Shown here: positions 7,452 to 63,342 of the stretch, piece by piece
Numbering within the stretch: position 1 is the stretch's first letter
Layout of the letters: each line of letters begins with the position of its first letter
From: Minisyncoccota bacterium
GTDB taxonomy: Bacteria > Verrucomicrobiota > Verrucomicrobiia > Limisphaerales > UBA8199
Direction of reading: 5' to 3'
DNA length: 64,000 bases
Assembly (NCBI GenBank): GCA_035452965.1
Contig: DAOTCE010000015.1
Location: 33,818-97,817, forward strand
Program-made: the position numbers and the translations under genes
The notes under the pieces: model-generated
What the model saw: only the letters and a program-made list of their open reading frames with translations
Told to the model about the DNA's origin: nothing
Databases searched by the model: none

Positions 7452-7534
7452 GACCTCGGTTCATGGCAGAATGAAATAGGACTGGCAAGCGAGTAGTTTA
7501 GTCCACGCCGTGCCTGAAAAGGTCCGCCACGCAG

Positions 7535-7841
7535 CCCACTTGGCCAGTATGGGTTAGAATGGTCAAACGGGGCAGGTGGGCTCAAGTCCTGCATCGCAAG
7601 CCGGATGTCCCCGTCCACGCCCGCCGACTGCCGCTCGCCCCTGGATCTTGAAGCACCCTGCCCCCAAGCCAGATAGGGCGATGTGACGGTCCCAATCCGG
7701 GGGGACTACGGTGTGTATCCCATGGGGGTCGGCCCCCATGGGATACACACTGGGGCATAACGCGTGTCACACCGTTGTCGCACCGGCAATTATGGCTGTG
7801 GGGGCTGCGGGAGGACGCACTACTGTCCTAAAAATGGACAC
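7535..7841 (-). repeat. Copy A of a four-copy interspersed hairpin-centred element (full length, inverted relative to copies B-D)
   Basis: The central palindrome GTGTGTATCCCATGGGGG-TCGG-CCCCCATGGGATACACAC lies at 7711-7750. The reverse complement aligns block by block with 38819..39143: GTGTCCATTTTT..GACAG, GCCGGTGCGACAACGGTGTGAC, CCGTAGTCCC.CCGGATTG, CATCGCC, GGCAGTCGGCGGGCG, CCGGCTTGCG, TTGAGCCCACCTGCC and TTCTAA..ACTGGCCA. It is intergenic, between the divergent sulfatase and GH43 genes. Confidence 0.75.
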
Positions 7842-8005
7842 AACGCAAATTCCCACCAGCGCGGCTATTCAGTCCAGGAATATGGGACTGTGCACATTGC
7901 CTCCACGAGCGCGTTTTCGCCCATTCAGGCCAGGTCTCTGCTTGCTTGACAGCACGGGTCCGAGGTTACAGGCTTCCGTCGCCGGGCAGAGGCCCGGAGA
8001 GATCT

Positions 8006-12400: not shown

Positions 12401-15400
12401 GTTGTGTTCCGAAAGACCGAGGGCAGTGCGGGGGGGCGGAATTTCCCCAGGGAATCCAAAGTGGCCGATCTACCTGGCTCCTGGAATGTCGCGTTCGACC
12501 CCAAGTGGGGCGGGCCGCAGAACGTGGTATTCGACCGCCTGCAGGACTGGAGCAAGCGCAAGGAAGACGGTATCCGTTACTATTCCGGGACCGCGATCTA
12601 CCGCAAGAGCTTCGATGCGCCCAAGAGCGTGCGCGGGCAGCGGATGCACCTGGATTTGGGCGCGGTGAAGAACCTGGCGGCGGTCCGGTTGAATGGTCGG
12701 GACCTGGGCGTAGTATGGTGCGCGCCCTGGCGAGTGGACATCACCGACTCCGCCAAGGTGAAGGGAAACCAGTTGGAAATCACCGTGGCTAACCTGTGGC
12801 CGAATCGGTTGATCGGCGACCAGTCGCTTCCCCCCGAACAGCGGCTGACCTCAACAACCTGGAACCCTTTCAAGAAGGATTCGCCCTTGCTGGAGTCGGG
12901 CCTGCTGGGCCCGGTATCGTTGGTTGCAGTCGAGGGTGCTTCGGCTGCCGAGCCAAAACGAAAACGGGCCGACGCTCAGACTGGCCATACACAAACCGCC
13001 GACTGCGCTATCGTCGAGCACCCGGGCAGCCGTCTGGTAACACTCGCGGATGCGAGGAGCAACCTGGTGCTGCGCTTGAACTACAATGGCCGTTGCCTGC
13101 TGGACCGGGTCATAGTCCGCAGCCGCGAAGTGATCGCTCCGGAAACCGGCGTGTGCAGCGCCATCCAGGTCTCGAACCACTGGTTCACCACGCGCAGCGG
13201 CATACCTGCGCCCAAAGTAGCTGTCAGCCGGAACAAGGTGACGGTGCGCGAGATTGTCTTCGGAGGCATGGGTATTCAGGTAACGGAGAACTGGGAATTC
13301 ACCGTGCACCCGGATCGGATTCTCTGGCAGATCAGCCGCAACTACGGGATGGCCGGCCGGCTCGAAGATTCGTACTGCCCGGGGTGGGACTTCCGCGACA
13401 TGAACACCTGGACCGGCGGGCTGCTGGACACTGGCGGCGTGGTCTGGAACAAGTACCTGGAGACCTCCAATGCTACTTACGGCGCCCACGCCAGCGCCGT
13501 CACATTTTGGAATCGAGACGACGGTGCTTGTCTTCGCATCAAAAGTGAAGCAGGCGCATCCCGCCCGCCGCCGCACCTGGCGATGAGGTTCTCACACCAG
13601 CCCTCAGGGATCCAAACTGCAAGTTTTTCGGTCACCGACAGTGAACTCAAGCCGAGGCATGACCTGCGCCGTTTCCATCCCTCCCGGCAAGACCTGTGGG
13701 CGCCATACGAGGTCAAACCAGACCAGCTAACGGTGACCTACAGCCTCCAATCGCTGGATTACGGCAAGGCGTTCGATCGAGGTTCATTCCAGGGCCTCAA
13801 CGGCAAGAGCATTCGCGACTTGCTGAATACCATTGGCCGCTATGGGGTCATTGACCGTCGTATTCTCGGCGCCAACGGCTGGCGCACCGGGTTTACCTGC
13901 CTGCACGAGCAATGGTTCTCGCAGATGGGCATCGCTATTGACGATCCGGATTACCTGGCGAACTGCGCCGCCACTTTCGACTTCGAGCGGGACCACGCCA
14001 TTGAGCCGAGCGGACGCGTCAAGTCACGCTGGTGTTGCCTCGCTCACGACGCCATGCCCGGCACCTACGACGCCAACGGCTACTATGAGGCGCAGTGGGG
14101 CTACCTGCTGGATTCGCAGCCCTGCTACGTCATTTGCGTGGCGGAATTGTTCGACCTCACCGGCGACCAGGAATGGCTGCGTGGGCAGAAATCCGCCTGC
14201 GAGCGCGCGCTGGATTACCTGTTGCGCCGCGACGCCGATGGCGACGGGCTGGTCGAGATGATGACCGACAGTCACAAGCAGGAGCGCGGGAGCGACTGGA
14301 TTGATGTGATTTGGGCCGCGCACGAAAACGCGCTGGTCAACGCGGAGCTGTACTACGCCTTGCTCCTCTGGGCCGATGCTGAGGAGGTGCTGGGCGACGA
14401 CGCGCGCGCGGCGGACTATCGCCGATGCGCCGCGAAGCTGAAGGTCAACTTTAACAGAACCGCCGCGGAGGGCGGCTTTTGGGATCCGCAAAACCAGTGG
14501 TATGCATATTGGCGGGAAAAGGACGGCTCCATCCACGGCAACAACCTCGTAACCCCCGTACAGTTCACCGCCATCGGCTATGGCTTGTGCGACGATGCGG
14601 AGCGGCGCGAGGCAATTCTGCGCCGCATCGAGAAGGAAATGCGGAATGAAAACCTGTTCTTCTGGCCGCTGAACTTCTTTCCCTACCAGCCCGGGGAAGG
14701 CCACGCCACGGTCAACTTCCCGTTCCCCAACTACGAGAATGGCGACATCTTCCTTTCCTGGGGAGAACTGGCGGTGCGCGCCTACGCCAAGTCCGATCCG
14801 GCCATTGCGGTCAAGTACATCAGGAACGTGCTCGACCGGTATGAAGCCGACGGACTGTCATTCCAGCGCTACGAGCGCAAGTCCCAACGCGGTGCGGGCG
14901 AGGACATTCTGGCGGGCAACTGCATGCCGGTGGTAGGGCTGTATCGCAACATCTACGGCCTCCAGCCTAAACACGACCGCATCTACCTCGAACCACACTT
15001 GACTCCGGAACTCAGCGGCACGCGGCTTCGCTATCAACTGCGGAACCAATCCTATCTGATAGACCTTACCACGGCTGCGACTCGCGTGGAAGTGGAGGAC
15101 TTTGCGGTACGCTCGGCGCAGCCTTTTGCGCTGAGTGCGAAAGGGGATACGGCCCAGCTTTTCCCCGGCAAGTCGGGCGGACCCGCAATGACGCTGAGCC
15201 GTTCCCGTCGTGCGCCGGTGGAGATCGAACTGGACACCCGGCTTGCGGACATGGCGTCGGAGAGGAAATGGATCGTATCCTCCGGAAGCGCGGGGGTGGT
15301 TATCTGGCATGTCGTTTCTCACCTGACGCCACACGCGAAGTACGAGCTGCGTCGGGAGAACCACAAGGTCGGTTCCTTCAAGGCTGACGGTGGGGGACAA

Positions 15401-15463
15401 GTGGAATTCAAGTGCGAATTCGACGCCACGGAGCCGCAGCACTTCGAACTGCTTCAACAATGA
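9461..15463 (+). CDS. Giant secreted glycosidase: GH106-like (PF17132-type, alpha-L-rhamnosidase-like) module fused to an ~840-aa C-terminal extension containing a six-hairpin (alpha/alpha)6 glycosidase-like domain
   Basis: The ORF opens at 9416; the ATG at 9461 gives the signal peptide MPSWINF..PPIFLLLLLVALGWASPSAA. The N-terminal block FQRPPESARAWVYWFVMDGNFSREGITADFEALKRAGIGGVSMMEVD and the C-terminal block YYSGTAIYRKSF..LDLGAVKNLAAVRLNGRDLGVVW..LWPNRLIGD are shared with the two paralogs in the window. An inserted WIWHHEGNP..YFRRSF..ALWVNGRPAG..GENILAVAA segment resembles rhamnosidase N-terminal/galactose-binding-like domains. The extension contains DADGDGLVEMM..SDWIDVIWAAHENALVNAELYYALLLWADAEEVLGD. 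Family names are tentative. Confidence 0.82.
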   Translation: MPSWINFTSGAPNHCPSRPPIFLLLLLVALGWASPSAAPGADLDQGFQRPPESARAWVYWFVMDGNFSREGITADFEALKRAGIGGVSMMEVDVGIPRGTVKFMGPEWRALFKHAVAEAERLGLQITLNAGPGWTGSGGPWVKPEESMQHLVASAVEVAGPKRFDEMLPRPQRRPAFFGDGQLPAELEKAKNDFYRDEIVLAFPTPAGNERISDIDEKALYVRAPYSSQPKVKPFLPTSASYPALPSEAVIAADRVLDISERMGPDGRLAWDVPAGRWTIMRFGRTSTGACTRPAPLPGLGLESDKMDPAALEAHFNAFVGVLLREIGPRKQSAESGWTMLHIDSWEMGAQNWTAAFRDEFRRRRGYDPARYLPAVTGRVVDSLEVTERFLWDVRQTAQELVIQNHAERLKELGRRHGFGLSIEPYDMMPCSDMSFGAVADVPMCEFWLHGFDTTYSVIEAASVAHTCGKQIVAAEAFTSDDTERWQAYPGAMKILGDWAFSSGVNRIVFHRYQHQPQLDARPGMTMGPYGVHWERTQTWWDMAGAYHEYLARCQFMLRQGLPVADVCFLVPEGSPHVFRPPSSARIGQPPDRPGYNYDGCAPETLMSRMSVAADGRLVLPDGMSYRVLVLPEMPTMTPALLRKVRDLVKAGATVVGSPPLKSPSLSGYPQCDDEVQKLAAELWGDGSGAPRLQGRVIREAGKNAARSGKSPEPIKLSKWIWHHEGNPADSAPVGSRYFRRSFNLDGKGDVESGRVYMTADNSFALWVNGRPAGKGNNFHAVSVLDVTQMLRPGENILAVAAENGGTAPNPAGLTGALVVKFRDGHVFTVLTDKTWHAAQDTQGKWATARVAAGHWTGAMELGPAGMAPWGEVGLPAVEPEQFCDFTVVSAVLSELGVRPDFESDAPLRYTHRQTRDADIYFVANREERPVETSCIFRVAGKAPELWDPLTGQTRTLPEFTVRDGRTTVPMRFEPAQSFFVVFRKTEGSAGGRNFPRESKVADLPGSWNVAFDPKWGGPQNVVFDRLQDWSKRKEDGIRYYSGTAIYRKSFDAPKSVRGQRMHLDLGAVKNLAAVRLNGRDLGVVWCAPWRVDITDSAKVKGNQLEITVANLWPNRLIGDQSLPPEQRLTSTTWNPFKKDSPLLESGLLGPVSLVAVEGASAAEPKRKRADAQTGHTQTADCAIVEHPGSRLVTLADARSNLVLRLNYNGRCLLDRVIVRSREVIAPETGVCSAIQVSNHWFTTRSGIPAPKVAVSRNKVTVREIVFGGMGIQVTENWEFTVHPDRILWQISRNYGMAGRLEDSYCPGWDFRDMNTWTGGLLDTGGVVWNKYLETSNATYGAHASAVTFWNRDDGACLRIKSEAGASRPPPHLAMRFSHQPSGIQTASFSVTDSELKPRHDLRRFHPSRQDLWAPYEVKPDQLTVTYSLQSLDYGKAFDRGSFQGLNGKSIRDLLNTIGRYGVIDRRILGANGWRTGFTCLHEQWFSQMGIAIDDPDYLANCAATFDFERDHAIEPSGRVKSRWCCLAHDAMPGTYDANGYYEAQWGYLLDSQPCYVICVAELFDLTGDQEWLRGQKSACERALDYLLRRDADGDGLVEMMTDSHKQERGSDWIDVIWAAHENALVNAELYYALLLWADAEEVLGDDARAADYRRCAAKLKVNFNRTAAEGGFWDPQNQWYAYWREKDGSIHGNNLVTPVQFTAIGYGLCDDAERREAILRRIEKEMRNENLFFWPLNFFPYQPGEGHATVNFPFPNYENGDIFLSWGELAVRAYAKSDPAIAVKYIRNVLDRYEADGLSFQRYERKSQRGAGEDILAGNCMPVVGLYRNIYGLQPKHDRIYLEPHLTPELSGTRLRYQLRNQSYLIDLTTAATRVEVEDFAVRSAQPFALSAKGDTAQLFPGKSGGPAMTLSRSRRAPVEIELDTRLADMASERKWIVSSGSAGVVIWHVVSHLTPHAKYELRRENHKVGSFKADGGGQVEFKCEFDATEPQHFELLQQ

Positions 15464-18400
15464 GAACAGTCATTCATGTCGCATTCATGTTGCGCAGCGC
15501 GGTGCTCGTGCTGCTATTCTGCATAGCAACACCAGTTTGGGGGGGGGCCGGCCAAACTGCGGGAGGGGAGCATGATGAGCTTGCCAACGGCTTCGCCGAT
15601 CCGCCCAACAGCGCCCGCCTGCGCGCGTATTGGTGGTGGCTCAATGGAAATGTCACCAAAGCCGCTATTACCCGCGACCTGGAAGAAATGAAGGCCAAGG
15701 GCTTCGGCGGCGCATTGATTTGCGATGCGGGCGGCGCGCAACAGGACGGTAACGACCCGGTGCCGCACGGCCCCACTTTCTTTACGCCCGAGTGGCGCGA
15801 ACTCTACATACACGCGCTGCGCGAGGCCGAGCGCCTGGGCTTGGAGATGAGCTTGAACATACAGAGCGGATGGAACCTGGGCGGACCTATGGTCAAAGCC
15901 GAAGACGCGGCGAAGAAGCTGACCTGGTCGGAGGCCCTCATTAGCGGACCGGCCAAATACGCTGCGGCGCTGCCGGTGCCAAAAGCCCGGGAAGGATTTT
16001 ATCGTGACGTCGCCACAGTGGCGTATCGGCGGACAGCCAGGGCGCGACAGCCGGCCCCGCCAAGCATCACGAGCAGTTCCTCACAGCCGGACCACCTGGC
16101 CGAACTGGCGTGCGACGGCAACTCAGACACGTATTGGGTCTCCTCGGGCACGAAGCCCGGCGAGGGCCCAACTGCGGCTCGCCCTGAGTGGATCCAACTG
16201 AGCTTTCCGCAGACAGTCCGGGGCCTGAAGCTCCATGTCATGGGAAGGCCCGGTTACGGCCCGAAGGAGTGTGAGCTGCAGGTTTCCAACGACGGCAAGA
16301 CCTTCCGGTCCGAGCGTCGGTTTGGCATGGCGGACGGCGAGTCAGCAGAACTAAGCATGGTTGACGCGGACGCCTCGAACATCCGAATCGTTGTGCTGGC
16401 GGCATACGACCGGGGATCGCCTGGTGCGCCACGGAATGTGCAAATTGGCGAGATAAGCTGCTTTTGGAAGGACCATTCCCTGGGGCAGCCCGCGCGCCCG
16501 CCGCTTCAAAATTGGGAGCAAAAAGCGATCTACAAGCCTCTGCACTTTTCTGCGCCTGACACCGCGCCCCTGTTTGAGGAACTGCCGGCCACTCCTGGCG
16601 AGGAGGACACCCGGGCTGCAGATGTCCTGGACCTTACCGCGATGCTCTCCAAAGAAGGCATCTTGCACTGGGATGTCCCGGAGGGCACGTGGCAGGTTAT
16701 TCGGCTCGGCTGCACGATTGGGAACCATTCGCACGTGTCAACTTGCAGCGATGGCTGGCAAGGCTACTCCCTGGACGTGTTGGATGCGGGCGCGTTCCGG
16801 CGTTACTGGGATGCGGTGGTCGAGCCGCTGATCGCCGACGCCGGTCCGTTGGCGGGGCGCACTCTCAAGTATCTGCACACGGACAGTTGGGAAGTCGAGC
16901 CGCTGAATTGGACTCCCAACCTGCGCGCCGAGTTCCGCAAGCGCCGGGGCTACGACCCGCTGCCGTTCTTCCCCGTGCTGGCGGGCCGGATCGTAGATTC
17001 ACGCCCGGCCAGCAACCGCTTTCTGTATGACTTCCGCAAAACACTTGGCGACCTGGCTGTTGACAACCACTACCGCATCTTCCGCGACCTCGCACACAAA
17101 CACGGCCTCCAAATCCATCCCGAGTCCGGCGGACCCCATGCGGTGCCGATTGACGCCCAGCGCTGCCTCGGCATGGATGACGCGCCTATGTCCGAATTCT
17201 GGGCCTGGTCGTGGCGGCACCGGGTCGGGGAAAGCAACCGGTTCTTCGTGAAGCAGCCTGCCTCGGCGGCCCACACCTATGGGCACCGGCTGGTGTTAGC
17301 GGAAGGATTTACCACCATCGGCCCGCATTGGCAGGAGACGCTCTGGGATAATCTGAAACCCTCTTTCGACCAGGCCGCCTGCGAGGGCCTGAACCTGTTG
17401 GTCTGGCATGCGTTCGTGTGCTCCCCGGAGGAGATGGGTCTGCCGGGGCAACAGTATTTTGCCGGAACTCACTTCAATCCAAACACGACGTGGTGGTCGA
17501 GGTCCGCCCCCTTCCTGGCCTATCTCAATCGCTGCCAGTTCATGCTGCAGCAGGGCCTGTTCGTCGCGGATGCCTGCTACTACTATGGCGACCACGTGCC
17601 GAACTTCGCTCAGCTCAAACGCAGCGATCCGGCGCATGTGCTGCCCGGCTACGATTACGATGTCGTGACCGAGGATGTTATCCTCAAGCGCATGTCCGTG
17701 CGGGACGGCCGAATCGTGCTGCCGGACGGGATGAGTTACCGTGTGCTTGCGTTGCCGGATCGGCCCGGCATCTCGCTCGCGGTGCTCAAGAAACTGGAGA
17801 AGATGGTCAAAGCCGGCGCGACCATCGTCGGCCCCAGGCCTGCGCAAACCTATTCATTGAGCGGGTATCCCAAATGCGATGCCGAGGTGGTCCGGCTCGC
17901 GGATCGGTTGTGGGGGAACGATCGGCAGGTGAGCGGCATAAGGCGCTATGGCTGTGGGCGCGTGATCTCCGGGCAGACTCCCCGCCAAGTGCTCGGTGGT
18001 GATGGGCTCAAACCGGACTTCGGCTTCCGGCTGCAGCCGCAACCCACAACCTTGGACCCACAAGCCCCACCGGTGCTGGATTACATTCACCGAGCCAGCC
18101 GCGAAGCGGACATCTACTTTGTGGCAAACCGCTCCAACTGCTGGCTGAAGCCGGATTGCACCTTTCGCGTGGCCGGCAAAGTCCCCGAGCTTTGGGACCC
18201 ACTGACCGGAAGCAGCCGCCTCGCCGCGGTTTACACGCGTAGCGAAGAAACCACCACGCTGCCCCTTCAGTTTGCGCCGTATGGCTCCATGTTCGTGGTG
18301 TTCCGTCAGCCAGCCTCACCCAAGTCCGTCGCCACTGGTCAAACAGGTTCGAATTTCCCGGCCTACTCGGAGCCGCACGAACTCTCCGGAGCGTGGACTG

Positions 18401-18858
18401 TCCAGTTCGATCCCAGGTGGGGCGGGCCGGAATCGGCGGTTTTCGACCAATTAGTCAGTTGGCCCCAGCGATCTGAGGAAGGCATCAAGTATTATTCAGG
18501 CAAGGCGACTTATCACAAAACGTTTGACCTGCCGGAATCGCTGCGTCGTGATCGCCACCGCTTGTCGTTGGACCTGGGCGATGTCAAAAATCTGGCCACG
18601 GTGCGTCTTAATGGAAGGAACTTTGGCACGTTGTGGGCAGTCCCCTTCCGCGTGGACGCGACCGAGGCCATCAAACCGACCGGAAACAAACTCGAGGTGG
18701 AGGTCGTTAACTTCTGGCCCAACCGTATTATTGGAGACCAATTCCTCCAGCCGGAGAAGCGCTTTACGCGCACCAATATCCGGAAACTGACCAAGGACAC
18801 GCCGCTGATGGAGTCCGGTTTGCTCGGCCCGGTGCGTATTCTGGTTGAGGAACGTTAA
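15460..18858 (+). CDS. GH106-like secreted glycosidase paralog with an inserted F5/8-type-C (discoidin)-like domain
   Basis: The ORF opens at 15412. The ATG at 15460 overlaps the upstream stop (ATGA) and gives the signal peptide MRTVIHVAFMLRSAVLVLLFCIATPVWG. Shared blocks are FADPPNSARLRAYWWWLNGNVTKAAITRDLEEMKAKGFGG and YYSGKATYHKTF..LGDVKNLATVRLNGRNFGTLW..FWPNRIIGD. The discoidin-like insert is ELACDGNSDTYWVSS..WIQLSFPQTVRGLKLHV..CELQVSNDGKTF. Confidence 0.82.
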   Translation: MRTVIHVAFMLRSAVLVLLFCIATPVWGGAGQTAGGEHDELANGFADPPNSARLRAYWWWLNGNVTKAAITRDLEEMKAKGFGGALICDAGGAQQDGNDPVPHGPTFFTPEWRELYIHALREAERLGLEMSLNIQSGWNLGGPMVKAEDAAKKLTWSEALISGPAKYAAALPVPKAREGFYRDVATVAYRRTARARQPAPPSITSSSSQPDHLAELACDGNSDTYWVSSGTKPGEGPTAARPEWIQLSFPQTVRGLKLHVMGRPGYGPKECELQVSNDGKTFRSERRFGMADGESAELSMVDADASNIRIVVLAAYDRGSPGAPRNVQIGEISCFWKDHSLGQPARPPLQNWEQKAIYKPLHFSAPDTAPLFEELPATPGEEDTRAADVLDLTAMLSKEGILHWDVPEGTWQVIRLGCTIGNHSHVSTCSDGWQGYSLDVLDAGAFRRYWDAVVEPLIADAGPLAGRTLKYLHTDSWEVEPLNWTPNLRAEFRKRRGYDPLPFFPVLAGRIVDSRPASNRFLYDFRKTLGDLAVDNHYRIFRDLAHKHGLQIHPESGGPHAVPIDAQRCLGMDDAPMSEFWAWSWRHRVGESNRFFVKQPASAAHTYGHRLVLAEGFTTIGPHWQETLWDNLKPSFDQAACEGLNLLVWHAFVCSPEEMGLPGQQYFAGTHFNPNTTWWSRSAPFLAYLNRCQFMLQQGLFVADACYYYGDHVPNFAQLKRSDPAHVLPGYDYDVVTEDVILKRMSVRDGRIVLPDGMSYRVLALPDRPGISLAVLKKLEKMVKAGATIVGPRPAQTYSLSGYPKCDAEVVRLADRLWGNDRQVSGIRRYGCGRVISGQTPRQVLGGDGLKPDFGFRLQPQPTTLDPQAPPVLDYIHRASREADIYFVANRSNCWLKPDCTFRVAGKVPELWDPLTGSSRLAAVYTRSEETTTLPLQFAPYGSMFVVFRQPASPKSVATGQTGSNFPAYSEPHELSGAWTVQFDPRWGGPESAVFDQLVSWPQRSEEGIKYYSGKATYHKTFDLPESLRRDRHRLSLDLGDVKNLATVRLNGRNFGTLWAVPFRVDATEAIKPTGNKLEVEVVNFWPNRIIGDQFLQPEKRFTRTNIRKLTKDTPLMESGLLGPVRILVEER

Positions 18859-23189: not shown

Positions 23190-23317
23190 TTAATCTCGGA
23201 TTTACGGGAAGTTCCAACGGTCGTTTTCACCCCTATATACCGGATGACCAATGCACAGTGAATAGAAGGTCAGCAATGGTCCCGGTCCAAAACAATCCTG
23301 GCCCCCCAACTCGTGCA

Positions 23318-23495
23318 CTGTCCACATTTTGGACAGTTGTGCCGCCTGTCTGCTTTCTCCAGTCCCAGAAAACGCCGGTCTCCTTGGCTTGCGGATGCGG
23401 TAACAACATGGTGGCGCTACGGTGTGTATCCCATGGGGATCGCTCCCCATGGGATACACACCGTAGGCTAACCGCACTAACAAGCCATCCTCCAG
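23318..23495 (+). repeat. Copy B of the interspersed hairpin element (divergent; 3' half not conserved)
   Basis: CTGTCCACATTTTGGACAG lies at the 5' end. The perfect hairpin GGTGTGTATCCCATGGGGA-TCGC-TCCCCATGGGATACACACC is at 23421-23462 and is followed by CCGTAG. It is intergenic, between the kinase and the ceramidase-like gene. Confidence 0.6.
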
Positions 23496-23855
23496 CCCAC
23501 CACAAGCCAATGCGAGGGTATGGCCACCCTGACGACGGTGTCGCCCGTCCAGCGAGGGTACCGGCGGTTAGAGGGGCCGCCCGAGAAGACAAATCGCCAT
23601 CGGTATTCTCCGGGAGTCCGCAAAGAACCAATGAGTAGTTTCAAGTTGGAAGTGCCTTAGCGTGACGCATGTCCTGCTTGCGGGAATTCGAGGAGGTCGC
23701 CAAGCCATTTGCGCATTGCACAGTCGCCAGTTTGCTCTATAACTAGGCAATGAAGCTGCGCCATTCAGTTCCCGCCTATTGCAGCCTGCCTCCGGGTTAA
23801 TGACATTATGAAAGCCTGGAAGGACTTAGCGTGCAGCAACCGCCGGTTGGGGAAA

Positions 23856-28386: not shown

Positions 28387-28538
28387 CGGTTTGACCTGTG
28401 TGTTTAGCGTAGCGCAGGCGTCCTCGCCTGCGGGCTCCGGCCGCATCTCGCCCTCGGTTTGCATCCGCGCACCGACATGGCGCGCCAAACCGCAGGCGGG
28501 GACGCCTGCGCTACGCTAAACACATACGGTTTGACCTG
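28387..28538. mobile_element. MITE-like insertion: 126-bp element with 35-bp terminal inverted repeats, flanked by a 12-bp direct duplication
   Basis: The left arm TGTGTTTAGCGTAGCGCAGGCGTCCTCGCCTGCGG (28399-28433) matches the reverse complement of 28490-28524 at 34 of 35 positions. The direct repeat CGGTTTGACCTG occurs at 28387-28398 and 28527-28538. Each arm contains the sub-hairpin GCAGGCG-N4-CGCCTGC. It is intergenic, between the TIM-barrel gene and the ARH-like gene. Confidence 0.55.
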
Positions 28539-28630
28539 CTGGTGCTGCCAGGCGCCAGAGTGACTGGTGGCACGTAATACGGCGGCTCTTTCTCGTTTAC
28601 AGCGCCGCCGGTTTTCTGCACGGTGGCGGC

Positions 28631-30340: not shown

Positions 30341-31873
30341 CTACTGCCTCGGGTTAAGGCGGAAGACGCGATTGATGGATGGCGGAATCTCGTCCGGGCG
30401 GTGCGTGACGTAAATAACCGTGGTGGCGCGGCTGCGAATAAGGCCGTCCACAGTGTTGACGAAGAAGCGCCGGTGCGCCGAATCAAGGCCCTGGCAGGGC
30501 TCATCCAGGATAAGCAGGCGGGGGCATTTCACCAGGGCGCGTGCGAGCAACACCATTCGCTGGAGGCCCGCCGACAGAGCGAAGAGCGGCTCCGAAGCGC
30601 ATTCGAGCAGGTGAAACCGCACCAGCCAACGCCGGACAGCGGCGCGCTGACGCGAGGAGGGGCGCTCGAACAAGCCAATCGCGTCGTAGAGACCGGAGGC
30701 CACCACCTCGAAGCAGGTCACCGAATCGGTAAAGTGAAGGTGCAGCTCGGGCGAAACCCAGCCTATCGGCCTCCTGATCTCCCAGACAGACTCTCCCCGG
30801 CCACGCGGCTGGCCAAAGACGGTGATATCGTTGGCATAGACCTGCGGATTATCTCCGATAATGAGACTGAGCAGAGTGGTCTTGCCCGATCCGTTGGGGC
30901 CAAGCAGCGCCCAACTTTCTCCGGCGCGGACGATCCAGTTGACGTCGTGTAAAACAGTGATGTCTCCGTAGCGCACCGTGGCATTGCGGAGCCGGACCAC
31001 CTCGGCGCCTGCGCGGGCAGGGGTAGATCTGGCGGGCCTATCCATTCCCTTGCGCAGCCCAGCTGTTTTAGACAGGCAAACAGGCCGCCTGCAATGGGGC
31101 AGCGATAGGATGTCCGCTCGCGAGCCGGCGGCGACAATCCGGCATTCGGCCACGCAAAGCACGTGGGTCACCTGGCGCGGGAGGTCTTCGGGCCGCGTCG
31201 CAATGAGCAGTATCCGCAGAGGAGTCTCCATGAGCCTTTCCAGAACAACGTGGAAGCGGGCGCGGGTACCGGCGTCCAATCTGGCGAAGGCCTCATCCAG
31301 AATGAGCAGCCGCATGGGACGCGACAACCCTCGCGCCAATTGGACTCGCTGCCGTTCGCCGTTGGAGAGAGAAATGAGGCGGCGGTCCAGAAAGGGTCCG
31401 ACCCGGAGCAGAGCGACGGCGCGACGCATCCGGCTTTCGAAGCGGGGGCGTGCGTGTAGATGCTGTGCGGAGACCTCGAACGGATTGACCTCCATGACTC
31501 GCTCGTAAGACAGGAAATCGCGCACGCGCAAGGCGTTCTCGTCGTCGAGGCTGTTCCAGCGAGACTGGACAACGGCGTCGAGGTTTTCGGCCTTGCGGTG
31601 CTCGAAGGAGACGTGGCTGATGGCTTCCTCGGGCGCGAGTCCCGGCAGCGGCCTGAATTGGTAAAGCAGTTCCCCGCCCACCAGTGGCAAGCGGCCGCGC
31701 AAGGCTTCCGCCAGGAGAGATTTGCCCGACCCGTTGGCGCCCAGGATGGCCCAGTGCTCCGACCGCCGGAAAATCCAGGTACTGTGCTCGAACACCAGCC
31801 GGTCCCCCAGGCGGAACGAAGCGTCCAACAAGGAGAGAAATGGCGGAGGGTGATGCGGCTTTGGTAAGGTCAT
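30341..31873 (-). CDS. Tandem-domain ABC ATPase without an adjacent permease (ModF-like)
   Basis: The ORF opens at 31939; ATG at 31873 (MTLPKPHH) is preferred. It has two ABC cassettes. The first is GANGSGKS / LSNGERQRVQLARGL / LLILDEAF. The second is GPNGSGKTTL / LSAGLQRMVLLARAL / LLILDEPCQGLD. Confidence 0.88.
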   Translation of the reverse strand: MTLPKPHHPPPFLSLLDASFRLGDRLVFEHSTWIFRRSEHWAILGANGSGKSLLAEALRGRLPLVGGELLYQFRPLPGLAPEEAISHVSFEHRKAENLDAVVQSRWNSLDDENALRVRDFLSYERVMEVNPFEVSAQHLHARPRFESRMRRAVALLRVGPFLDRRLISLSNGERQRVQLARGLSRPMRLLILDEAFARLDAGTRARFHVVLERLMETPLRILLIATRPEDLPRQVTHVLCVAECRIVAAGSRADILSLPHCRRPVCLSKTAGLRKGMDRPARSTPARAGAEVVRLRNATVRYGDITVLHDVNWIVRAGESWALLGPNGSGKTTLLSLIIGDNPQVYANDITVFGQPRGRGESVWEIRRPIGWVSPELHLHFTDSVTCFEVVASGLYDAIGLFERPSSRQRAAVRRWLVRFHLLECASEPLFALSAGLQRMVLLARALVKCPRLLILDEPCQGLDSAHRRFFVNTVDGLIRSRATTVIYVTHRPDEIPPSINRVFRLNPRQ

Positions 31874-31899
31874 GCAGAAACTCGTCCGGGGCATGCTGT

Positions 31900-31936
31900 C
31901 CGAAGCGGCAGCCGTCTCCAAATAGAAAAGACTCCT
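31900..31936 (+). promoter_or_regulatory. Copy 1 of a conserved 37-nt intergenic motif
   Basis: CCGAAGCGGCAGCCGTCTCCAAATAGAAAAGACTCCT matches 34771-34807 at 34 of 37 positions, and the flanks are unrelated. It lies in the divergent region between the ABC ATPase and the GloVer-repeat gene. Confidence 0.5.
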
Positions 31937-32333
31937 CATCCATCGGTGTGCACGGTGTTAGGAGTTCTTTGAGCGACGCGGCGGCGAAACCGCATTGGGC
32001 TGCCTGTGGGGTGAACACCCCATAGCGGAAATTCCGGTCTGGTCTAGAATTCACGCTTATGAGAGCCTTCCTAAGGAGAAAGAGGATAGGAGTGTATTAC
32101 CGTGGCTCGGGTAGGGCTTACGGCGGTCTTGGGCAGGCGCTGCATTTCCCGAGCGTTTCGGCGGCCGCCCGGCTCGCCCTCATTGAGGGTCTGGCCGACG
32201 TGGAGATAGTCTTGCGTTGCGATTACCTCACCCGCACAGCGGGCTGAGTGTGCGCGGCGCGCAAGAGTAGATCATTAACGTTCCAGGAGGATTCGCCCCC
32301 GAAATCCGCATGAATGACTGAAAGGCATTATTT

Positions 32334-34770: not shown

Positions 34771-34807
34771 CCGAAGCGGCAGCTGCCTCCAAATAGAAAA
34801 AACTCCT
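34771..34807 (+). promoter_or_regulatory. Copy 2 of the conserved 37-nt intergenic motif
   Basis: CCGAAGCGGCAGCTGCCTCCAAATAGAAAAAACTCCT lies 109 nt upstream of the ATG (34916) of the third GH106-like gene, in the same orientation as copy 1. Confidence 0.5.
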
Positions 34808-34915
34808 TGCGCAGATTCGGGCGCAATAGGGGTTGTGGTACTGGGGGTTTTCGGGTTTGCTGGTGGGGGCGTGCACCGGAAGGTGCCACCCAGGCGAGAG
34901 TCGAAAGAGAGCACT

Positions 34916-37900
34916 ATGCGAAACAGGATCACCCCCGTAAATCTGTGGCTGACCATATCCACCATGGCCAGCCTTTTTTTGACCGCGAACCTTGACGCTG
35001 CGGCAAGCGACCTTGCCCGGGGCTTCGCTTCGCCGCCTCAGTCCGCCAAGCCGTGGGTCTATTGGTTCTGGTTGGATGGAAATATCACACGCGAGGGAAT
35101 CACCGCCGACCTGGAGGCCATGCGGCGGGTGGGGATTGGCGGGGTGCTGATCATGGAAGTGGACCAGGGAGCGCCCCCAGGGCCCGCGCGGTTTGCCAGC
35201 CCACAGTGGCGCGAGCTCTTCAAGTTCATGCTCACCGAGGCCAAACGACTGGGCCTGGAAGTCAACATGAACAACGACGCCGGCTGGTGCGGGAGCGGCG
35301 GGCCGTGGATTCCGCCCGCGCTGGCCATGCAGAAAGTGGTGTGGACGACCACCAACCTGGATGGGCCGCGCCGGTTCGAGGGGGTGCTCCCGGAACCGCA
35401 AAGAGTGGCGAATTACTATGAGGACATCGCCGTGCTGGCCTTCCCAACTCCAGCGGAGTATCAGATCGAGAACATCCAGGCCAAGGCGGCGTTCATCCGT
35501 CAGGAAGTGCCGTTCAGGAAGTTGTCGGAGCCACTCCCGGTGGAGAAGACCATTGCTCGCGGCGGCAGCCGCGAGTTGACGGCGCAGATGGGCAAAGATG
35601 GCCGGCTGGCGTGGGATGTGCCGCCTGGCAAGTGGACGGTGCTACGCTTAGGCCATACCCCGACCGGCAAAGATAATCATCCCGCGCCGCTTGATGGCCG
35701 GGGACTGGAGTGTGACAAGCTGAGCCGCAAAGCGGCGGACGCCATGTTCGAGGGACTGATGGGCAAGCTTATCGCGGATTCCAAGGCGCTGGCGGGCAAG
35801 ACGCTGGTGGCGACGCACATTGATAGCTGGGAGGTGGGATCGCAGAACTGGACCCTGGCCTTCCGCGAGGAGTTCAAGCGGTTGCGCGGCTACGACCCAT
35901 TGCCCTTCCTGCCGGTGATGACGGGGCGCGTAGTGGAGAGCCTGGAAGTATCCGAGCGGTTCCTGTGGGACCTGCGCCAGACCATTTCAGAGTTGGTGGT
36001 GGCGAACTACGCGGGGCGGTTTCGCGAGCTGGCGCACGAACACGGGTTGCGGCTCTCCATCGAGGCATACGATGGCTGCTGCGACGACATGACCTACGCC
36101 GGCCAGGCCGATGAACCGATGGGCGAATTTTGGTCATGGACTTTTGGCAGCGGCGCGGATTGGTGCACCGAGATGGCCTCTGCAGCACACATTTACGGAA
36201 AGCCCATTCTGGGCGCCGAAGCGTTCACGGCAACGGACAAAGAGAAGTGGCTCGGGCATCCAGGCGGCATCAAGGCGCTGGGCGACTGGGCATTCTGCGA
36301 AGGAATCAACCGGTTTGTGTTCCACCGCTATGCGTTACAGCCGTGGCGGGATGTGAAGCCCGGCATGTCTATGGGGCCGTGGGGGCTGCATTACGAGCGC
36401 ACGACGACCTGGTGGGAACAGTCCACAGCCTGGCACGAGTATTTGTCCCGCTGTCAGTACTTGCTCCAGCAGGGGCAATTCATTGCGGATGTCTGCTACC
36501 TGTCGCCGGAAGCGTCGCCCTATCGCTTCCGCGCTCCGCCGACGCCCGGGAACCCGTCGCATCGGCCTGCCTACAACTTCGACGGCTGCACCCCTGAGGC
36601 AGTGCTGACACGTATGAAAGTGAAGGGCGGACGGCTCGTTTTGCCCAGTGGCATGAGCTACCGCGTGCTTGTCCTGCCCGAGGTGGAAACGATGACTCCC
36701 AAACTGCTGCGCAAAGTCAGGGATCTAGTCGAAGCAGGCGCGACAGTCGTTGGGCCAGCCCCGTTGAGGTCGCCCAGCCTCTCGAACTTTCCGCAGTGCG
36801 ACGAGGAAATCGCGACGCTCACGCGCGAGCTTTGGGGCGGCGGGGCAGGGGAGGGGACCAGCTTGTTCGGGCGGGGCCGAGTGATTTGGCCCATTGAGCA
36901 AAGGGAACAAGAGCCGCAGGACATGCCAGCCCGACTTGGGTCGGCCAAGTGGATCTGGTTTAAGGAAGGCAATCCGGCCGCAGCGGTGCCCGCCGGCCGA
37001 CGCTACTTCCGTCGAGTGCTAAACCTGGAAGCGGCGGCAGAGGTTGAATCCGCACCAATGGTGATGACCGCCGACAATGAATTCGAGCTTTGGGTCAACG
37101 GTCGTCGTGCCGGAGGAGGAGCAGACTTCAATCATACCTTTGCAATGGACTGCGCGCGCCTACTTGTGCCGGGTTCGAACTTGCTGGCGGTGGCGGCCGT
37201 AAACGGCGCGGATGCACCCAATCCCGCGGCATTGATTGGCAACCTGATTATCAAGTATCGCAGTGGCCGCACCATCCAGGTGCCCACCGACGGCAAATGG
37301 GAGTCGGCCAGGACGGTCCAGGGCGACTGGCGCGGCGACGTGCAGGCCCCCGGAGCCTGGGAACCGGCGCTGGAAGTCGGGGCGCTGGGGATGGCGCCTT
37401 GGGGAGACGTCACGGCACAGGCGCAGGCGCCGTACCCGAGCGCGGAGGCAACTGCGGTCCTGCTGCGCAAACTGGGCGTGCCGCCGGACTTTGATTACGC
37501 GACCCAGAGCACGGAGCGGAGCCTGCGCTACATCCACAAGCGGCTTGGCAAGACAGACCTCTATTTCGTGGCCAACGAGAAGCCGCACCCCGAGGCAGCG
37601 GTGTGCAGCTTCCGCGTTCAAGGCAAACGGCCAGAGCTATGGTGGCCGGACAGCGGGAAGATCGAACAGTCGGCGGTGTATGACGAGACAGGCGGCTGCG
37701 TGCGGATGCCGATTCATTTTGACGCAAGCGGCTCGGTCTTCGTGATGTTCCGCCCGGGCGGCGACCTGGAGCGGGACCGGATCATAGCCGTGGAGCGAAA
37801 CGGTGAAGCACTGGTTGACTTACGTAAGCAAGAACTGTCGGCGCCTGTGTTGGAAGAGGCCGTAATTGGGTTGGTTCGCGGCAAGGCGGGCACCGTGCAG

Positions 37901-38560
37901 GCGGACGTTCGTAAGCCGGGCAAATATGCATTGGTTTCCGCAGATGGATCCCGGCGGGAGTTCGAAGCCGACACCTTACCCGAGCCGTTAGAGATCACCG
38001 GCCCTTGGCAGGTGCGGTTCGCGCCCGGAGGCGGAGCGCCAGCGCAAGTCACGCTTGACCGGCTGATCTCCTGGAGCCAACACGGGGATTCGGGCGTGAG
38101 ATACTTTTCGGGCACGGCGACTTACCATAGGACTTTTGACCTGCCAACGGGGTTCGCAGCACGGCACCGGCGGTTATGCTTGGATCTTGGCCGAGTTGAA
38201 GTGATGGCGGAGGTGAAGCTCAATGGCAAGAATCTCGGCATCCTCTGGAAGCAGCCGTATTGTGTGGACGTGACCGACACGGTGAAGCCGGGGCAGAACA
38301 AGTTGGAGCTGGCGGTCGTCAATCTCTGGCCCAACCGGCAAATCGGCGACGAGCGACTGCCCGAGGACAGCGAGCGCAATCCAAACGGCACCCTCAAGCA
38401 ATGGCCGCAATGGCTGCTCGACGGCAAGCCGAGCCCGACCGGGCGCCACACGTTCACAAGCTGGCGCCTGTGGCAGCGAGATTCCCCGCTGGTCGAGTCT
38501 GGCCTGCTCGGGCCCGTGACGTTGCGGCCAGCAGAGCGGGTGATGCTTTCACCCAAGTGA
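34916..38560 (+). CDS. GH106-like secreted glycosidase paralog (with rhamnosidase-N/galactose-binding-like insert)
   Basis: The ORF opens at 34835; the ATG at 34916 gives MRNRITPVNLWLTISTMASLFLTANLDAAA. Shared blocks are FASPPQSAKPWVYWFWLDGNITREGITADLEAMRRVGIGGVLIMEVD and YFSGTATYHRTF..LGRVEVMAEVKLNGKNLGILW..LWPNRQIGDE. The insert AKWIWFKEGNP..YFRRVL..ELWVNGRRAG..GSNLLAVAA matches that of the 2015-aa ORF-track paralog. Confidence 0.82.
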   Translation: MRNRITPVNLWLTISTMASLFLTANLDAAASDLARGFASPPQSAKPWVYWFWLDGNITREGITADLEAMRRVGIGGVLIMEVDQGAPPGPARFASPQWRELFKFMLTEAKRLGLEVNMNNDAGWCGSGGPWIPPALAMQKVVWTTTNLDGPRRFEGVLPEPQRVANYYEDIAVLAFPTPAEYQIENIQAKAAFIRQEVPFRKLSEPLPVEKTIARGGSRELTAQMGKDGRLAWDVPPGKWTVLRLGHTPTGKDNHPAPLDGRGLECDKLSRKAADAMFEGLMGKLIADSKALAGKTLVATHIDSWEVGSQNWTLAFREEFKRLRGYDPLPFLPVMTGRVVESLEVSERFLWDLRQTISELVVANYAGRFRELAHEHGLRLSIEAYDGCCDDMTYAGQADEPMGEFWSWTFGSGADWCTEMASAAHIYGKPILGAEAFTATDKEKWLGHPGGIKALGDWAFCEGINRFVFHRYALQPWRDVKPGMSMGPWGLHYERTTTWWEQSTAWHEYLSRCQYLLQQGQFIADVCYLSPEASPYRFRAPPTPGNPSHRPAYNFDGCTPEAVLTRMKVKGGRLVLPSGMSYRVLVLPEVETMTPKLLRKVRDLVEAGATVVGPAPLRSPSLSNFPQCDEEIATLTRELWGGGAGEGTSLFGRGRVIWPIEQREQEPQDMPARLGSAKWIWFKEGNPAAAVPAGRRYFRRVLNLEAAAEVESAPMVMTADNEFELWVNGRRAGGGADFNHTFAMDCARLLVPGSNLLAVAAVNGADAPNPAALIGNLIIKYRSGRTIQVPTDGKWESARTVQGDWRGDVQAPGAWEPALEVGALGMAPWGDVTAQAQAPYPSAEATAVLLRKLGVPPDFDYATQSTERSLRYIHKRLGKTDLYFVANEKPHPEAAVCSFRVQGKRPELWWPDSGKIEQSAVYDETGGCVRMPIHFDASGSVFVMFRPGGDLERDRIIAVERNGEALVDLRKQELSAPVLEEAVIGLVRGKAGTVQADVRKPGKYALVSADGSRREFEADTLPEPLEITGPWQVRFAPGGGAPAQVTLDRLISWSQHGDSGVRYFSGTATYHRTFDLPTGFAARHRRLCLDLGRVEVMAEVKLNGKNLGILWKQPYCVDVTDTVKPGQNKLELAVVNLWPNRQIGDERLPEDSERNPNGTLKQWPQWLLDGKPSPTGRHTFTSWRLWQRDSPLVESGLLGPVTLRPAERVMLSPK

Positions 38561-38818
38561 CAGGCAATTCCAATAGTGCCAGGTAGGCGCATTTGGCCCG
38601 AGAAACCGCCGACTGGCCACACTTGGCGACGCGACGCCAGGATTCTGGGCGCTAAGCACAATTGAGGATGTCACGCCTCTGTAGGGTCGTAGGCTTCGTC
38701 CTGGAGGCTGCGAATGCAGCGTTTTTGAGCCATTAAGGCCCCGCCCCATCCTCCCGCGCTCCAGTGCTCCAGCCCCCTGTTCCTCGGCGAAATTGCCGTC
38801 CATGCGGAAAGTGGTGCC

Positions 38819-39143
38819 GTGTCCATTTTTGAGACAGTTGCGATTGTCAGCCCCGCCGCAGGAGATCGAAGTGCCGGGGCGACAACGGTGTGACCCCCGT
38901 GATACCCCGGTGTGTATCCCATGGGGATCGCTCCCCATGGGATACACACCGTAGTCCCACCGGATTGCCGCCGTTCCATCGCCATAGTTGGACTTGGCCT
39001 GCGGGGCCTCCGGCCTGGGGCACTTGTGGTGCCTGTGGTTAGGGCGGCAGTTGGTGGGCGCGGCCGGATGGACCCGGCTTGCGGCGCGTTTTTTGAGCCC
39101 ACCTGCCTGGTTGAACCGTTCTAATCGAAACTGGCCAGGTTGG
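38819..39143 (+). repeat. Copy C of the interspersed hairpin element (full length)
   Basis: The hairpin GGTGTGTATCCCATGGGGA-TCGC-TCCCCATGGGATACACACC is at 38909-38950. It is flanked by GCGACAACGGTG (38879-38890) and CCGTT..CATCGCC (38971-38983), which can pair as an outer helix. It is collinear with the reverse complement of copy A over ~300 bp. It lies between the convergent GH106-like and OmpA-like genes. Confidence 0.75.
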
Positions 39144-39283
39144 ATTCGGCGCTACCGACAGGGAATGCTGTAGTGGATTGCCGAAATCACGCAGTTGGAT
39201 ACCAGAGTGGTAAGTAAATTGTAGGCTCGCAATGACCCAGAGCTGCGAGGTGCGCAGGAAACAGCTCCCGGGGCGCAAGCACG

Positions 39284-53626: not shown

Positions 53627-53771
53627 GCGGAGGACTGTCGTTCATTACCCGCCCTACGGCAAGCGCCATTTCGGCCGCTGTTGACGGGGAAAAGCACGTG
53701 AAACTGCATATACGCGCACTGCTACCACAGTACATTAACAGAATCCCCCATTCATGAACCGAACCTCCCTC

Positions 53772-53900
53772 CCGGTGCGACAACGCTGTGAAGCCCGTTA
53801 GAACCCGGTGTGGTTCCCATGGGGGCCGACCCCCATGGGAACCACACCGTAGTCCCGCCGGATTGGCACCGTTGCATCGCCGTAGCTGGATTCTGCGGCA
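53772..53900 (+). repeat. Copy D of the interspersed hairpin element (core only; variant stem with compensatory changes)
   Basis: CCGGTGCGACAACGCTGTGA is followed by the hairpin GGTGTGGTTCCCATGGGGG-CCGA-CCCCCATGGGAACCACACC (53807-53848), then CCGTAGTCCCGCCGGATTGGCACCGTTGCATCGCC. It lies 60 nt upstream of the exosortase ATG. The 5' GTGTCCATTTTT block is absent. Confidence 0.65.
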
Positions 53901-63015: not shown

Positions 63016-63342
63016 ATGAATCGGACCAAGCGCTTGAAAGGCACCTGCACCGAATGCGGCGGCCCCATCGAGTTCCCCGCCGAGATGATCGGCGCGACAG
63101 CCCAATGTCCGCGCTGTCGGAAGCAAACCGAGTTGCGTCTGTCCGCCCCGCCAGAAGAGCCAGTGGTGCCGCGCCGAGTGATCGTCTGGACCGCCGTAAC
63201 CATTGCGATTCTGGTCCTGGCTGCGGTTGCCCTGGTGATTGGGCTCAAGCACTTTGAGGAATTGAATGCCAGCCAGACGCAGCAGGCTGCTGGCGTCGAA
63301 GCCGCCCGTTCGACGAATTCGCCGGCGCCGGCCAGGCAATAG
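63016..63342 (+). CDS. Small zinc-ribbon membrane protein (hypothetical)
   Basis: 108 aa with CTECGGPIEFP..(N10)..CPRCRKQT (CxxC..CxxC) followed by the TM helix VIVWTAVTIAILVLAAVALVIGL. I recognise no family; it may be real given the clean architecture. Confidence 0.5.
   Translation: MNRTKRLKGTCTECGGPIEFPAEMIGATAQCPRCRKQTELRLSAPPEEPVVPRRVIVWTAVTIAILVLAAVALVIGLKHFEELNASQTQQAAGVEAARSTNSPAPARQ

Follow-up and report, generated by a model that had tools for sequence, protein, structure and literature searches.

A previously undescribed intergenic repeat family with a central palindrome and phased mirrored flanks in some Verrucomicrobiota

Introduction

Palindromic repeats interspersed in the genome are familiar from Proteobacteria but hardly charted in the mostly uncultured Verrucomicrobiota. 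The BIMEs of Enterobacteriaceae, which are built from Y and Z REP units, are intergenic, multicopy, non-coding mosaics in which a few types of unit form inverted pairs of unlike members, and they are capable of forming hairpins or cruciforms. REP-like elements stabilize upstream mRNA (reviewed in PMC3733652), and roles in stabilizing mRNA 3' ends, as RNase III sites, or in termination or pausing have been reported for REP and ERIC sequences. ERIC, BOX, and Correia elements are likewise intergenic; they have defined termini, and Correia elements carry 26-bp terminal inverted repeats (TIRs) and a TA duplication. The BIME-2 REPs of Escherichia coli are strong gyrase sites that work independently of transcription (PMC6379681). 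In the 130-bp E. coli gyrase motif, two 47-bp flanks with a period of 10.75 bp enclose a 36-bp centre, and the whole is symmetric around a staggered cut of 4 bp (PMC6379681). GTAG-REPs are abundant palindromes that form abutting inverted dimers, with heterodimers preferred, and families GTAG-17, GTAG-18, and GTAG-19 are abundant in Opitutus terrae, a member of the same phylum as the family described here (PMC3733652).

Here, a repeat present in four copies in one 64-kb window, that is, the whole stretch of DNA that was analyzed, is compared with these systems. The four copies are members of a previously undescribed non-coding intergenic repeat family of some Verrucomicrobiota, no description of which was found in full-text literature searches. 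Rather than an RNA gene, the family is probably a mosaic repeat of the REP/BIME-like kind that operates at the DNA level.

Copies in the window and in other genomes

The initial annotation of the window described four copies of an interspersed, non-coding, intergenic element with a central hairpin. All four were present at the positions claimed: the pattern CCCATGGGG-N6-CCCCATGGG matched at sites centred at 7730, 23441, 38929, and 53827, compared with no match in 100 dinucleotide-preserving shuffles. An independent repeat search of the window recovered the family as well, through both direct and inverted repeats, and a covariance model run with its filters off returned the same four sites and no others in the 64 kb. 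The sequence blocks listed as shared were all seen when the four regions were read. That annotation did not include the phasing at 11 nt, the mosaic nature of the arms, or the actual length of the element, which are described below.

In total, 56 copies were collected from the source metagenome-assembled genome (MAG), several Verrucomicrobiota MAGs, and metagenomes. The first sample was obtained by scanning species-representative genomes with the bare palindrome and comprised at least 120 loci. Approximately 45 of the 120 loci listed were true relatives, almost all of them in Verrucomicrobiota MAGs, and MAG CAZVFC01 alone contained at least 36 loci. The rest of the listed loci, from Microbacterium, Brachybacterium, Chromatiaceae, and others, were unrelated short palindromes. 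A second, independent sample was obtained by scanning metagenome contigs with an asymmetric motif of the 3' arm instead of the hairpin, which yielded 16 additional true copies and 3 chance matches. Two carriers (L027 and L042) were binned outside Verrucomicrobiota, for which mis-binning or transfer is possible.

Constant module and central stem

All of the copies share a dyad-symmetric constant module of ~124 bp. Its centre is a 50-bp palindrome, consisting of a 20- to 23-bp stem around N-C-G-N, and its middle reads CCATGGGG-NNCGNN-CCCCATGG. Each flank contains approximately four 11-nt units, which are CGGYG followed by N6 on the left and, as the mirror image, N6 followed by CRCCG on the right. 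With the register counted from the dyad, 39 copies align over 124 columns without any gap, and 158 of 164 CGGNG occurrences in the arms share one phase of the 11-nt register. Both the GC content and the information content oscillate with a period of 10.25 to 11 nt. Two loci lacking the canonical core carry literal tandem 11-mers (GTACACCGGAG in four copies and GTCTCACCGTA in three to four copies), and three identical 11-mers adjoin the core in L010 and L042, which suggests that the arms probably grew by tandem duplication of the 11-nt unit.

The central stem is conserved as a structure. In the 39-copy ungapped alignment, 96.0% of the cells of the inner 23 stem pairs are paired, and 11 of the 23 pairs have changed on both sides (60 cells). 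None of 500 shuffles reached any of five measures of stem pairing, and slid controls gave 35 to 52%. The covarying columns (46-49/76-79, 60/65, and 38-40/85-87) were not set by the search pattern, and three matched stem alleles were found (TGTAT, TGGTT, and TGGTC). Only 7 of the 43 mismatched cells are G.T or T.G, showing no wobble preference, and the covariance model scores both strands alike. These changes on both sides indicate that pairing matters, without telling DNA from RNA. The centre N-C-G-N occurs in 38 of 39 copies, with its outer bases varying freely. The 9 + 9 core bases are invariant in this alignment (A2) because the first sample was fetched by the core pattern, so that their invariance follows from the sampling itself. 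This ascertainment bias is lifted, for one subtype only, by the arm-motif sample (19 copies); both CCCATGGGG halves were kept in 19 of its 19 copies, and the 20-bp stem was perfect in 12. The stem is flanked by CCCC/GGGG in most CAZVFC01 copies, and GTAG follows the stem on the 3' side only in the subtype of the window, on the side opposite to that of canonical REPs.

The hairpin reported in the initial annotation was real, whereas its length of 18 to 19 bp was an underestimate, the stem being 20 bp in copies A, C, and D and 23 bp in copy B. The same annotation proposed that GCGA/AACGG on the 5' side pairs with CCGTT/TCGC on the 3' side in an extended hairpin of ~105 nt. This pairing reflects the mirrored CGGYG/CRCCG pentamers and no conserved helix, and the variable hexamers of the outer arms are no better paired (43.8%) than those in shuffles (48.0%). 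The apparent long hairpin is thus a by-product of mirrored conserved pentamers.

Mosaic arms

Beyond ~60 nt from the dyad, the module continues into alternative arm families with lengths of 35 to 290 nt. In CAZVFC01, four arm families, Z (16), X (15), W (6), and Y (6), are conserved over 90 to 190 nt or more, and they are paired as X+Z (8), Z+W (6), and X+Y (4), with no like-with-like pairs. Outer arm segments gave 329 matches near a core and 4 marginal ones elsewhere. Since the arms never occur without the core, an arm and its half-core form one physical unit, and each element is therefore an inverted pair of unlike halves. The idea that the arms are independent repeats invaded by a small core was rejected because arms without a core were not found.

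At full length, the subtype in the window measures ~450 to 475 nt, its 5' arm being ~190 nt and its 3' arm ~290 nt long. Copies A, B, and C and six others have a 5' arm containing an ~80-nt module with TGTCC-N7-GGACA, and copy D and nine others have a 5' arm without it. The TGTCC-N7-GGACA 17-mer occurs nowhere else in the window and recurs in two CAZVFC01 arms (L067 and L069).

The four copies and their gene settings

Copy C, the full-length representative, extends over 453 nt on the plus strand (38747..39199), as determined by local alignment to the subtype consensus and by alignment with 18 other copies, and consists of a type-a 5' arm, the constant module, and the long 3' arm. Its TGTCC-N7-GAGACA module lies within the 5' arm at 38820-38836 (plus strand). 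The 124-bp constant module (38868..38991, no strand assigned) comprises four 11-nt CGGYG units and four mirrored CRCCG units in the ungapped alignment, scores 107 to 111 bits with the covariance model on both strands, and has a predicted fold of -70 kcal/mol (z of -6.5). Within it, the 20-bp stem with a TCGC centre occupies 38908-38927 and 38932-38951 (no strand assigned). Copy A, on the minus strand, is of the same subtype with a shorter 3' arm and covers 361 nt (7530..7890) in the consensus alignment. Its constant module, placed by the ungapped alignment and the covariance model, is at 7669..7792, and its stem, with one G.T pair, is at 7709-7728 and 7733-7752, neither of them being assigned a strand. 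The initial annotation had thus placed copies A and C correctly but had made both too short, their extents being ~7530-7890 and ~38747-39199.

Copy B (23297..23503, plus strand; alignment and covariance model) has divergent arms, with TGTCCACATTTTGGACA at 23319-23335 and a perfect 23-bp stem at 23417-23439 and 23444-23466, both read from the sequence on the plus strand. Copy D (53742..53897, plus strand) has a type-b 5' arm, which lacks the TGTCC module, and a 3' arm that ends early after GCCGTAGCTGG; the alignment places its constant module, with the stem allele TGGTT/AACCA, at 53766-53889 (plus strand). Of the earlier division into two full-length and two truncated or divergent copies, the part concerning the 5' end of copy D did not hold, as this end is a second common 5'-arm subtype and not a truncation; copy D is truncated at the 3' end.

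According to Pfam matches of the flanking open reading frames, copy A lies between divergent GH43 and sulfatase genes, and copy B lies between an APH-like kinase gene and a ceramidase/LamG-like gene on the same strand. Copy C is located between convergent GH106 rhamnosidase and OmpA-family genes and copy D between divergent thioredoxin-like and exosortase genes. The window belongs to MAG GCA_035389725.1 and is present in a JGI metagenome as well, and the closest named homologues of its sulfatase are from Verrucomicrobiota. The window copies are ~15.4 kb apart, with a coefficient of variation of 0.022 (P of ~6e-4 versus random placement), a post hoc value based on four points. A classical GTAG-tagged REP doublet, unrelated in sequence to the family and flanked by a 12-bp direct repeat, lies at 28399-28524 of the window as well.

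Conservation and distribution

Whole elements are only 69 to 76% identical between genomes, and no copy is more than 91% identical to its closest match among the others, the median best match being 84%. Almost no decayed copies were found by the covariance model in 335 kb. Together, the divergence of the copies and the near absence of decayed ones indicate that drift affects the rest of the element but spares the core and the phasing.

All of the copies are intergenic, lying between divergent (~18), tandem (~16), or convergent (~9) genes according to crude gene calls. They may be enriched in divergent spacers (~18 of 43), the figure being a raw count from a crude gene caller, uncorrected for a genome-wide baseline. 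The only recurrent neighbours belong to large paralogous families, namely, N_methyl/DUF1559-like proteins, Gfo/Idh/MocA proteins, and response regulators/sigma-54 activators, and their orientations are inconsistent.

Copy A has no counterpart in three syntenic orthologous spacers (L123, L124, and L125), in which the sulfatases are 80 to 85% identical to that of the window and the GH106/GH43-sulfatase synteny is kept. With the same GH43 gene model, the GH43-sulfatase spacer is 782 nt in the window versus 423 nt in L124. In the spacer alignment, the GH43 side matches L124 and the ~60 nt immediately upstream of the sulfatase start match L123 and L125, and the 350 to 390 nt holding copy A are without counterpart in all three. 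Being absent from orthologous loci, the element does not serve its neighbours as a conserved regulator.

Comparison with known repeat families

The family resembles BIMEs in being intergenic, multicopy, non-coding, and hairpin or cruciform capable and in its mosaic build, and it shows a heterotypic inverted mosaic (X+Z, Z+W, and X+Y, with no homotypic pairs). It differs from BIMEs, which have two separate 35-nt REP hairpins, in having one 50-bp palindrome at the junction of the halves. In addition, the strict 11-bp phased pentamer is absent from BIMEs, and the arms, at up to 290 nt, are far longer than those of BIMEs. REP/REPIN units are 20- to 40-nt imperfect palindromes with a conserved GTAG (or CGTC) tetranucleotide at one end, whereas the unit here is the 50-bp palindrome; high-copy intergenic inverted doublets with a long hairpin are present, with at least 36 loci in one MAG. 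The REP-like part of the label MITE/REP-like, which the initial annotation had proposed, probably describes the family, whereas the MITE part is not supported, as there are no TIRs, no target-site duplications (TSDs), and ragged ends.

With GTAG-REPs and REPINs, the family shares abundant palindromic repeats arranged as inverted unlike dimers, but it has no fixed GTAG head. The O. terrae units are ~21 to 24 nt, and the REP-encoded peptides in the supplement are ~7 to 8 residues (PMC3733652). The motif CCATGG is absent from the supplementary files of that study (PMC3733652). The O. terrae GTAG-REPs were thus rejected as representatives of this family, the units being different.

Like ERIC, BOX, and Correia elements, the family has intergenic members of 100 to 450 nt, a modular composition with optional modules (here, the ~80-nt TGTCC module), tandem subunits, and the capacity to fold into a long rod. 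In contrast to the defined termini of those elements, its ends are ragged, no TSD was seen, and conservation peaks at the centre. Taken together, the family fails the defining features of canonical REPs, MITEs, attC sites, intrinsic terminators, and Rfam RNAs.

Several other candidates were tried and rejected. A 5' untranslated region or riboswitch was suggested by the position of copies A, B, and D upstream of same-strand genes; it was rejected because copy C is convergent, every arrangement occurs among the 56 copies, and copy A is missing from the orthologous spacers. A conserved coding frame is ruled out by the 11-nt period and by indels between copies. The sigma-54 promoter suggested by CACG-N4-TTGCA in the Z arms lacks the essential -24 GG in nearly all copies. 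The defining features of intrinsic terminators and CRISPR are absent. Integron attC sites were dismissed because conservation is central and not outer, the flanks are unlike RYYYAAC/GTTRRRY, and the copies lie ~15 kb apart among ordinary genes.

Alternative explanations

The initial annotation had offered a structured RNA family as an alternative to a mobile element. Stand-alone structured small RNAs or cis-regulatory leaders would account for the long conserved arms (up to 290 nt), in which local helices are predicted (for example, GGCAG..GGTGGGC/GCCCACC.TGCC enclosing GCCGG/CCGGC), and for the whole-element fold (z of -4.9). However, this reading is largely refuted and is very improbable. 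In agreement with the failure of that annotation to assign the element to a known family, Rfam searches of the window, the element, and 15 other loci returned nothing at the gathering score, and the E-value mode gave miRNA-hairpin artefacts only. The covariation that the RNA reading called for was found in the central stem and nowhere else, the RNAalifold covariation term outside the stem being -0.1 for 10 full-length copies. The helices drawn by RNAalifold contain 97 G.U versus 6 A.C, which reflects the bias of the predictor. Strand-blind helices have 47 G.U versus 32 A.C in the 3' arm and 99 versus 65 overall, counts in which the cells are not independent, and strand-blind arm helices are 63% Watson-Crick, with other mismatches commoner than either G.U or A.C. 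Neither a sigma-70-like promoter nor an intrinsic terminator was found inside copy A or C, the two strands score alike, and the arms are interchangeable and often truncated. In addition, the orientation of neighbouring genes is random, being 10 versus 6 on the 5'-arm side and 9 versus 7 on the 3'-arm side. Action as RNA upon co-transcription, whether as an mRNA 3'-end stabilizer, an RNase III site, or a termination or pausing signal, is less improbable than an independent RNA but still quite unlikely. The 127- to 131-nt core would form a highly stable hairpin (-65 to -75 kcal/mol, with z of -5 to -9), the stem covaries, REP-like elements are known to stabilize upstream mRNA, and the slight excess of G.U over A.C on the element strand weakly suggests some room for transcription. 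Against this, divergent genes, between which read-through mRNA is not expected, are the commonest setting, and the GH106 gene has a terminator-like site of its own (38707-38730) upstream of copy C. The stem is not followed by a U-tract, its mismatches show no wobble preference (7 of 43), and the mirror-symmetric 11-nt phasing and the conserved central CpG would be left unexplained.

At the DNA level, the family may instead represent a non-autonomous mobile element of the REPIN or MITE type, a reading that is possible but doubtful. The hairpin and the phased CGGYG motifs would then be sites for a trans-acting transposase encoded elsewhere, for example, an HUH/Y1 RAYT acting on single-stranded DNA hairpins, and a half-element would correspond to a transposon end. 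The copies are dispersed, intergenic, and multicopy, and the element is lineage specific at the sulfatase locus, which fits past duplication. Stem pairing is kept with several alleles, as in structure-recognized REP hairpins, and phased subterminal repeats are typical of transposase-binding arrays. The canonical GTAG-REP doublet in the same window shows that such systems exist in this genome, and GTAG-REP families abound in O. terrae (PMC3733652). However, the ends are ragged, with many end points and copy lengths of 128 to 474 nt, and no direct repeats bound the 19 oriented copies. The sole terminal-like inverted match (~10 nt, CGCAATCCAC/GTGGATTTGCG) is subterminal, 25 to 35 nt inside the 3' end, and occurs in full-length copies only, so that true TIRs are lacking. 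Conservation peaks at the centre and not at the termini, and no copy pair is more than 91% identical, which gives no sign of recent activity. As the initial annotation had noted, no transposase was found in the window, where no RAYT (Y1/HUH) gene was seen either, and neither a transposase nor a recombinase recurs among 221 proteins encoded within 3 kb of the 56 copies. Plasmid and viral-contig collections contained no similar sequences, and GTAG is restricted to the window subtype, on the side opposite to that of canonical REPs. Att-like sites of a site-specific recombinase, with the palindromic core as the crossover site, the phased repeats as arm-type sites, and the arm mosaic as the product of recombination between sites, are highly improbable. 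In favour of this reading, a core with arm repeats over 250 to 450 bp is reminiscent of attP, the exchange of arms takes place precisely at the core, and the central dinucleotide is conserved. Yet there are dozens of copies per genome beside unrelated genes, the arm families are themselves repeated and are not unique flanks, no integrase or recombinase recurs nearby, and viral contigs gave no matches.

Proposed mechanism

The phased mirrored pentamers, the ~20-bp complementarity, and the conserved CpG at the dyad make a DNA-level element the simplest reading. Judged from these sequence features, the most likely mode of action of the element is on DNA, through a hairpin or cruciform combined with a phased protein-binding platform. 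The specific mechanism of a symmetric phased platform is put forward tentatively and has a lower probability than the DNA-level reading itself. The phased motifs would offer one face of the duplex to a candidate dimeric or multimeric protein, which would bind symmetrically about the central CpG and bend or wrap ~120 bp. The palindrome may fold back on itself, giving a hairpin when the DNA is single-stranded or a cruciform when it is supercoiled, which would explain the joint change of both stem halves. The family may have spread by old duplications, with the arms reshuffled through recombination at the shared core. We propose that pairs of like arms are lost, since they would create long, unstable perfect palindromes, and that unlike pairs are the sole survivors. 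Bacteria are established not to tolerate perfect palindromes of several hundred base pairs (discussed in PMC3733652).

A more specific proposal, which we regard as unlikely, is that gyrase, or a different dimeric protein that wraps DNA, docks at the ~124-bp module as a sequence-encoded site, with copies at near-regular distances (~15.4 kb) setting or buffering supercoiling domains. In this proposal, the palindrome would position the two-fold centre of the enzyme at the 4-nt N-C-G-N, and on either side the four 11-bp-phased CGGYG units would guide the flanking DNA around the protein. Among known systems, BIME-2 of E. coli comes nearest as a precedent. The E. coli gyrase motif and the module are alike in their size of ~124 to 130 bp, their two-fold symmetry about a 4-nt centre, and their central block with near-helical flanks of ~45 to 55 bp, and the period of 10.75 bp in E. 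coli compares with 10.25 to 11 in the family. The gyrase motif differs in being a degenerate GC-content pattern read indirectly, whereas the family has a specific pentamer and a perfect palindrome. In addition, the cut-site preference of gyrase, which we take to be R-Y, differs from the central CG of the family. This likeness in layout offers a lead and not a test. If true, the module would be a hard-wired chromosome-topology element, much sharper than the BIME-2 of E. coli, which is gyrase docking DNA with no need of transcription (PMC6379681).

Implications

The combination of a hairpin with matched changes, mirrored motifs phased with the helical turn, and mosaic arms in unlike pairs points to a specific, putative DNA-protein complex ~120 bp across. 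For annotation, the family should be masked or modelled, since long arms and stable folds make its members easy to miscall as small RNAs, riboswitches, or MITEs. The copies are old, yet their core and phasing are intact, which suggests that the host or a cognate enzyme appears to maintain them. Should a topoisomerase or a nucleoid protein prove to be the binder, chromosome topology in this phylum could be studied with these elements as natural, sequence-defined handles.

Spacing and taxonomic reach of the repeat family

The four copies of the mosaic palindromic repeat in the window are almost evenly spaced, with centers at 7730, 23441, 38929, and 53827 and gaps of 15,711, 15,488, and 14,898 bp (coefficient of variation, 0.022). 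In a post hoc comparison, equally even spacing occurred in approximately 0.06% of random placements of four points in 64 kb. Two contigs binned outside Verrucomicrobiota, one in a Candidatus Acidoferrum MAG (locus L027) and the other in a "Gammaproteobacteria" MAG (L042), carry true main-family copies with both the phased arms and the core, which could reflect mis-binning or horizontal transfer.

The core palindrome, CCCATGGGG-N6-CCCCATGGG, also recurs in other phyla among the matches listed. It is found in Actinomycetota in the form GCCCATGGGGA-N4-TCCCCATGGGC (Microbacterium/Brachybacterium loci L002, L007, L008, L013, L021, L025, and others) and in Chromatiaceae within the conserved context CACCCCATGGGGACGTCTCCCCATGGGGGCGTC (Thiorhodococcus/Thiocystis loci L058, L064, L078, L090, L098, and L119). 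These palindromes are conserved hairpins separate from the main family, because the phased arms are absent at the listed loci of both groups. Literal tandem 11-mers, each containing the pentamer of the main family, are present as four copies of GTACACCGGAG at L118:1110-1165 and as three to four copies of GTCTCACCGTA at L053:5805-5850. The canonical CCCATGGGG core is absent from both arrays, which suggests that tandem duplication expands the 11-nt unit or that the pentamer array has an independent existence.

At three loci with a window-subtype copy (L127:995-3007, L131:1767-3353, and L136:3862-5184), the 3' end of a sigma-54 activator (bEBP) gene lies 120 to 270 nt from the repeat. The gene is oriented towards the 3' arm in two of the three and towards the 5' arm in the other; therefore, the proximity is probably due to chance in genomes that are rich in such regulators.

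Other features of the window

A REPIN-like doublet unrelated to the main repeat family occupies positions 28399-28524. It consists of a canonical GTAG-tagged REP hairpin, TGTGTTTAGC-GTAG-CGCAGGCG-TCCT-CGCCTGCG, present as two inverted copies, and the arms of the doublet (52 nt each) are 83% complementary. The direct repeat CGGTTTGACCTG on both sides of the doublet (28389-28400 and 28528-28539) may represent a target-site duplication of 12 bp. At L125, a locus lacking copy A, the sulfatase orthologue has a similar REP upstream.

ARAGORN predicted a tRNA-Ala(TGC) on the minus strand (63070-63161). Bacterial tRNAs are seldom as long as this one (92 nt), which may carry an insertion or an intron, or may be a miscall.

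Three giant paralogous GH106 (alpha-L-rhamnosidase) genes, at 9416-15463, 15412-18858, and 34835-38560, have several DNA repeat blocks (D1, D2, D7, and D9) in common. The 37-nt direct repeat CCGAAGCGGCAGCCGTCTCCAAATAGAAAAGACTCCT (92% identity) occurs at the start of the minus-strand gene at 30341-31939 (31900-31936) and just upstream of the third GH106 gene (34771-34807), and it may be a regulatory or leader sequence common to both genes. Together, the GH106, sulfatase, GH43, and exosortase genes constitute a polysaccharide-degradation neighborhood typical of Verrucomicrobiota.
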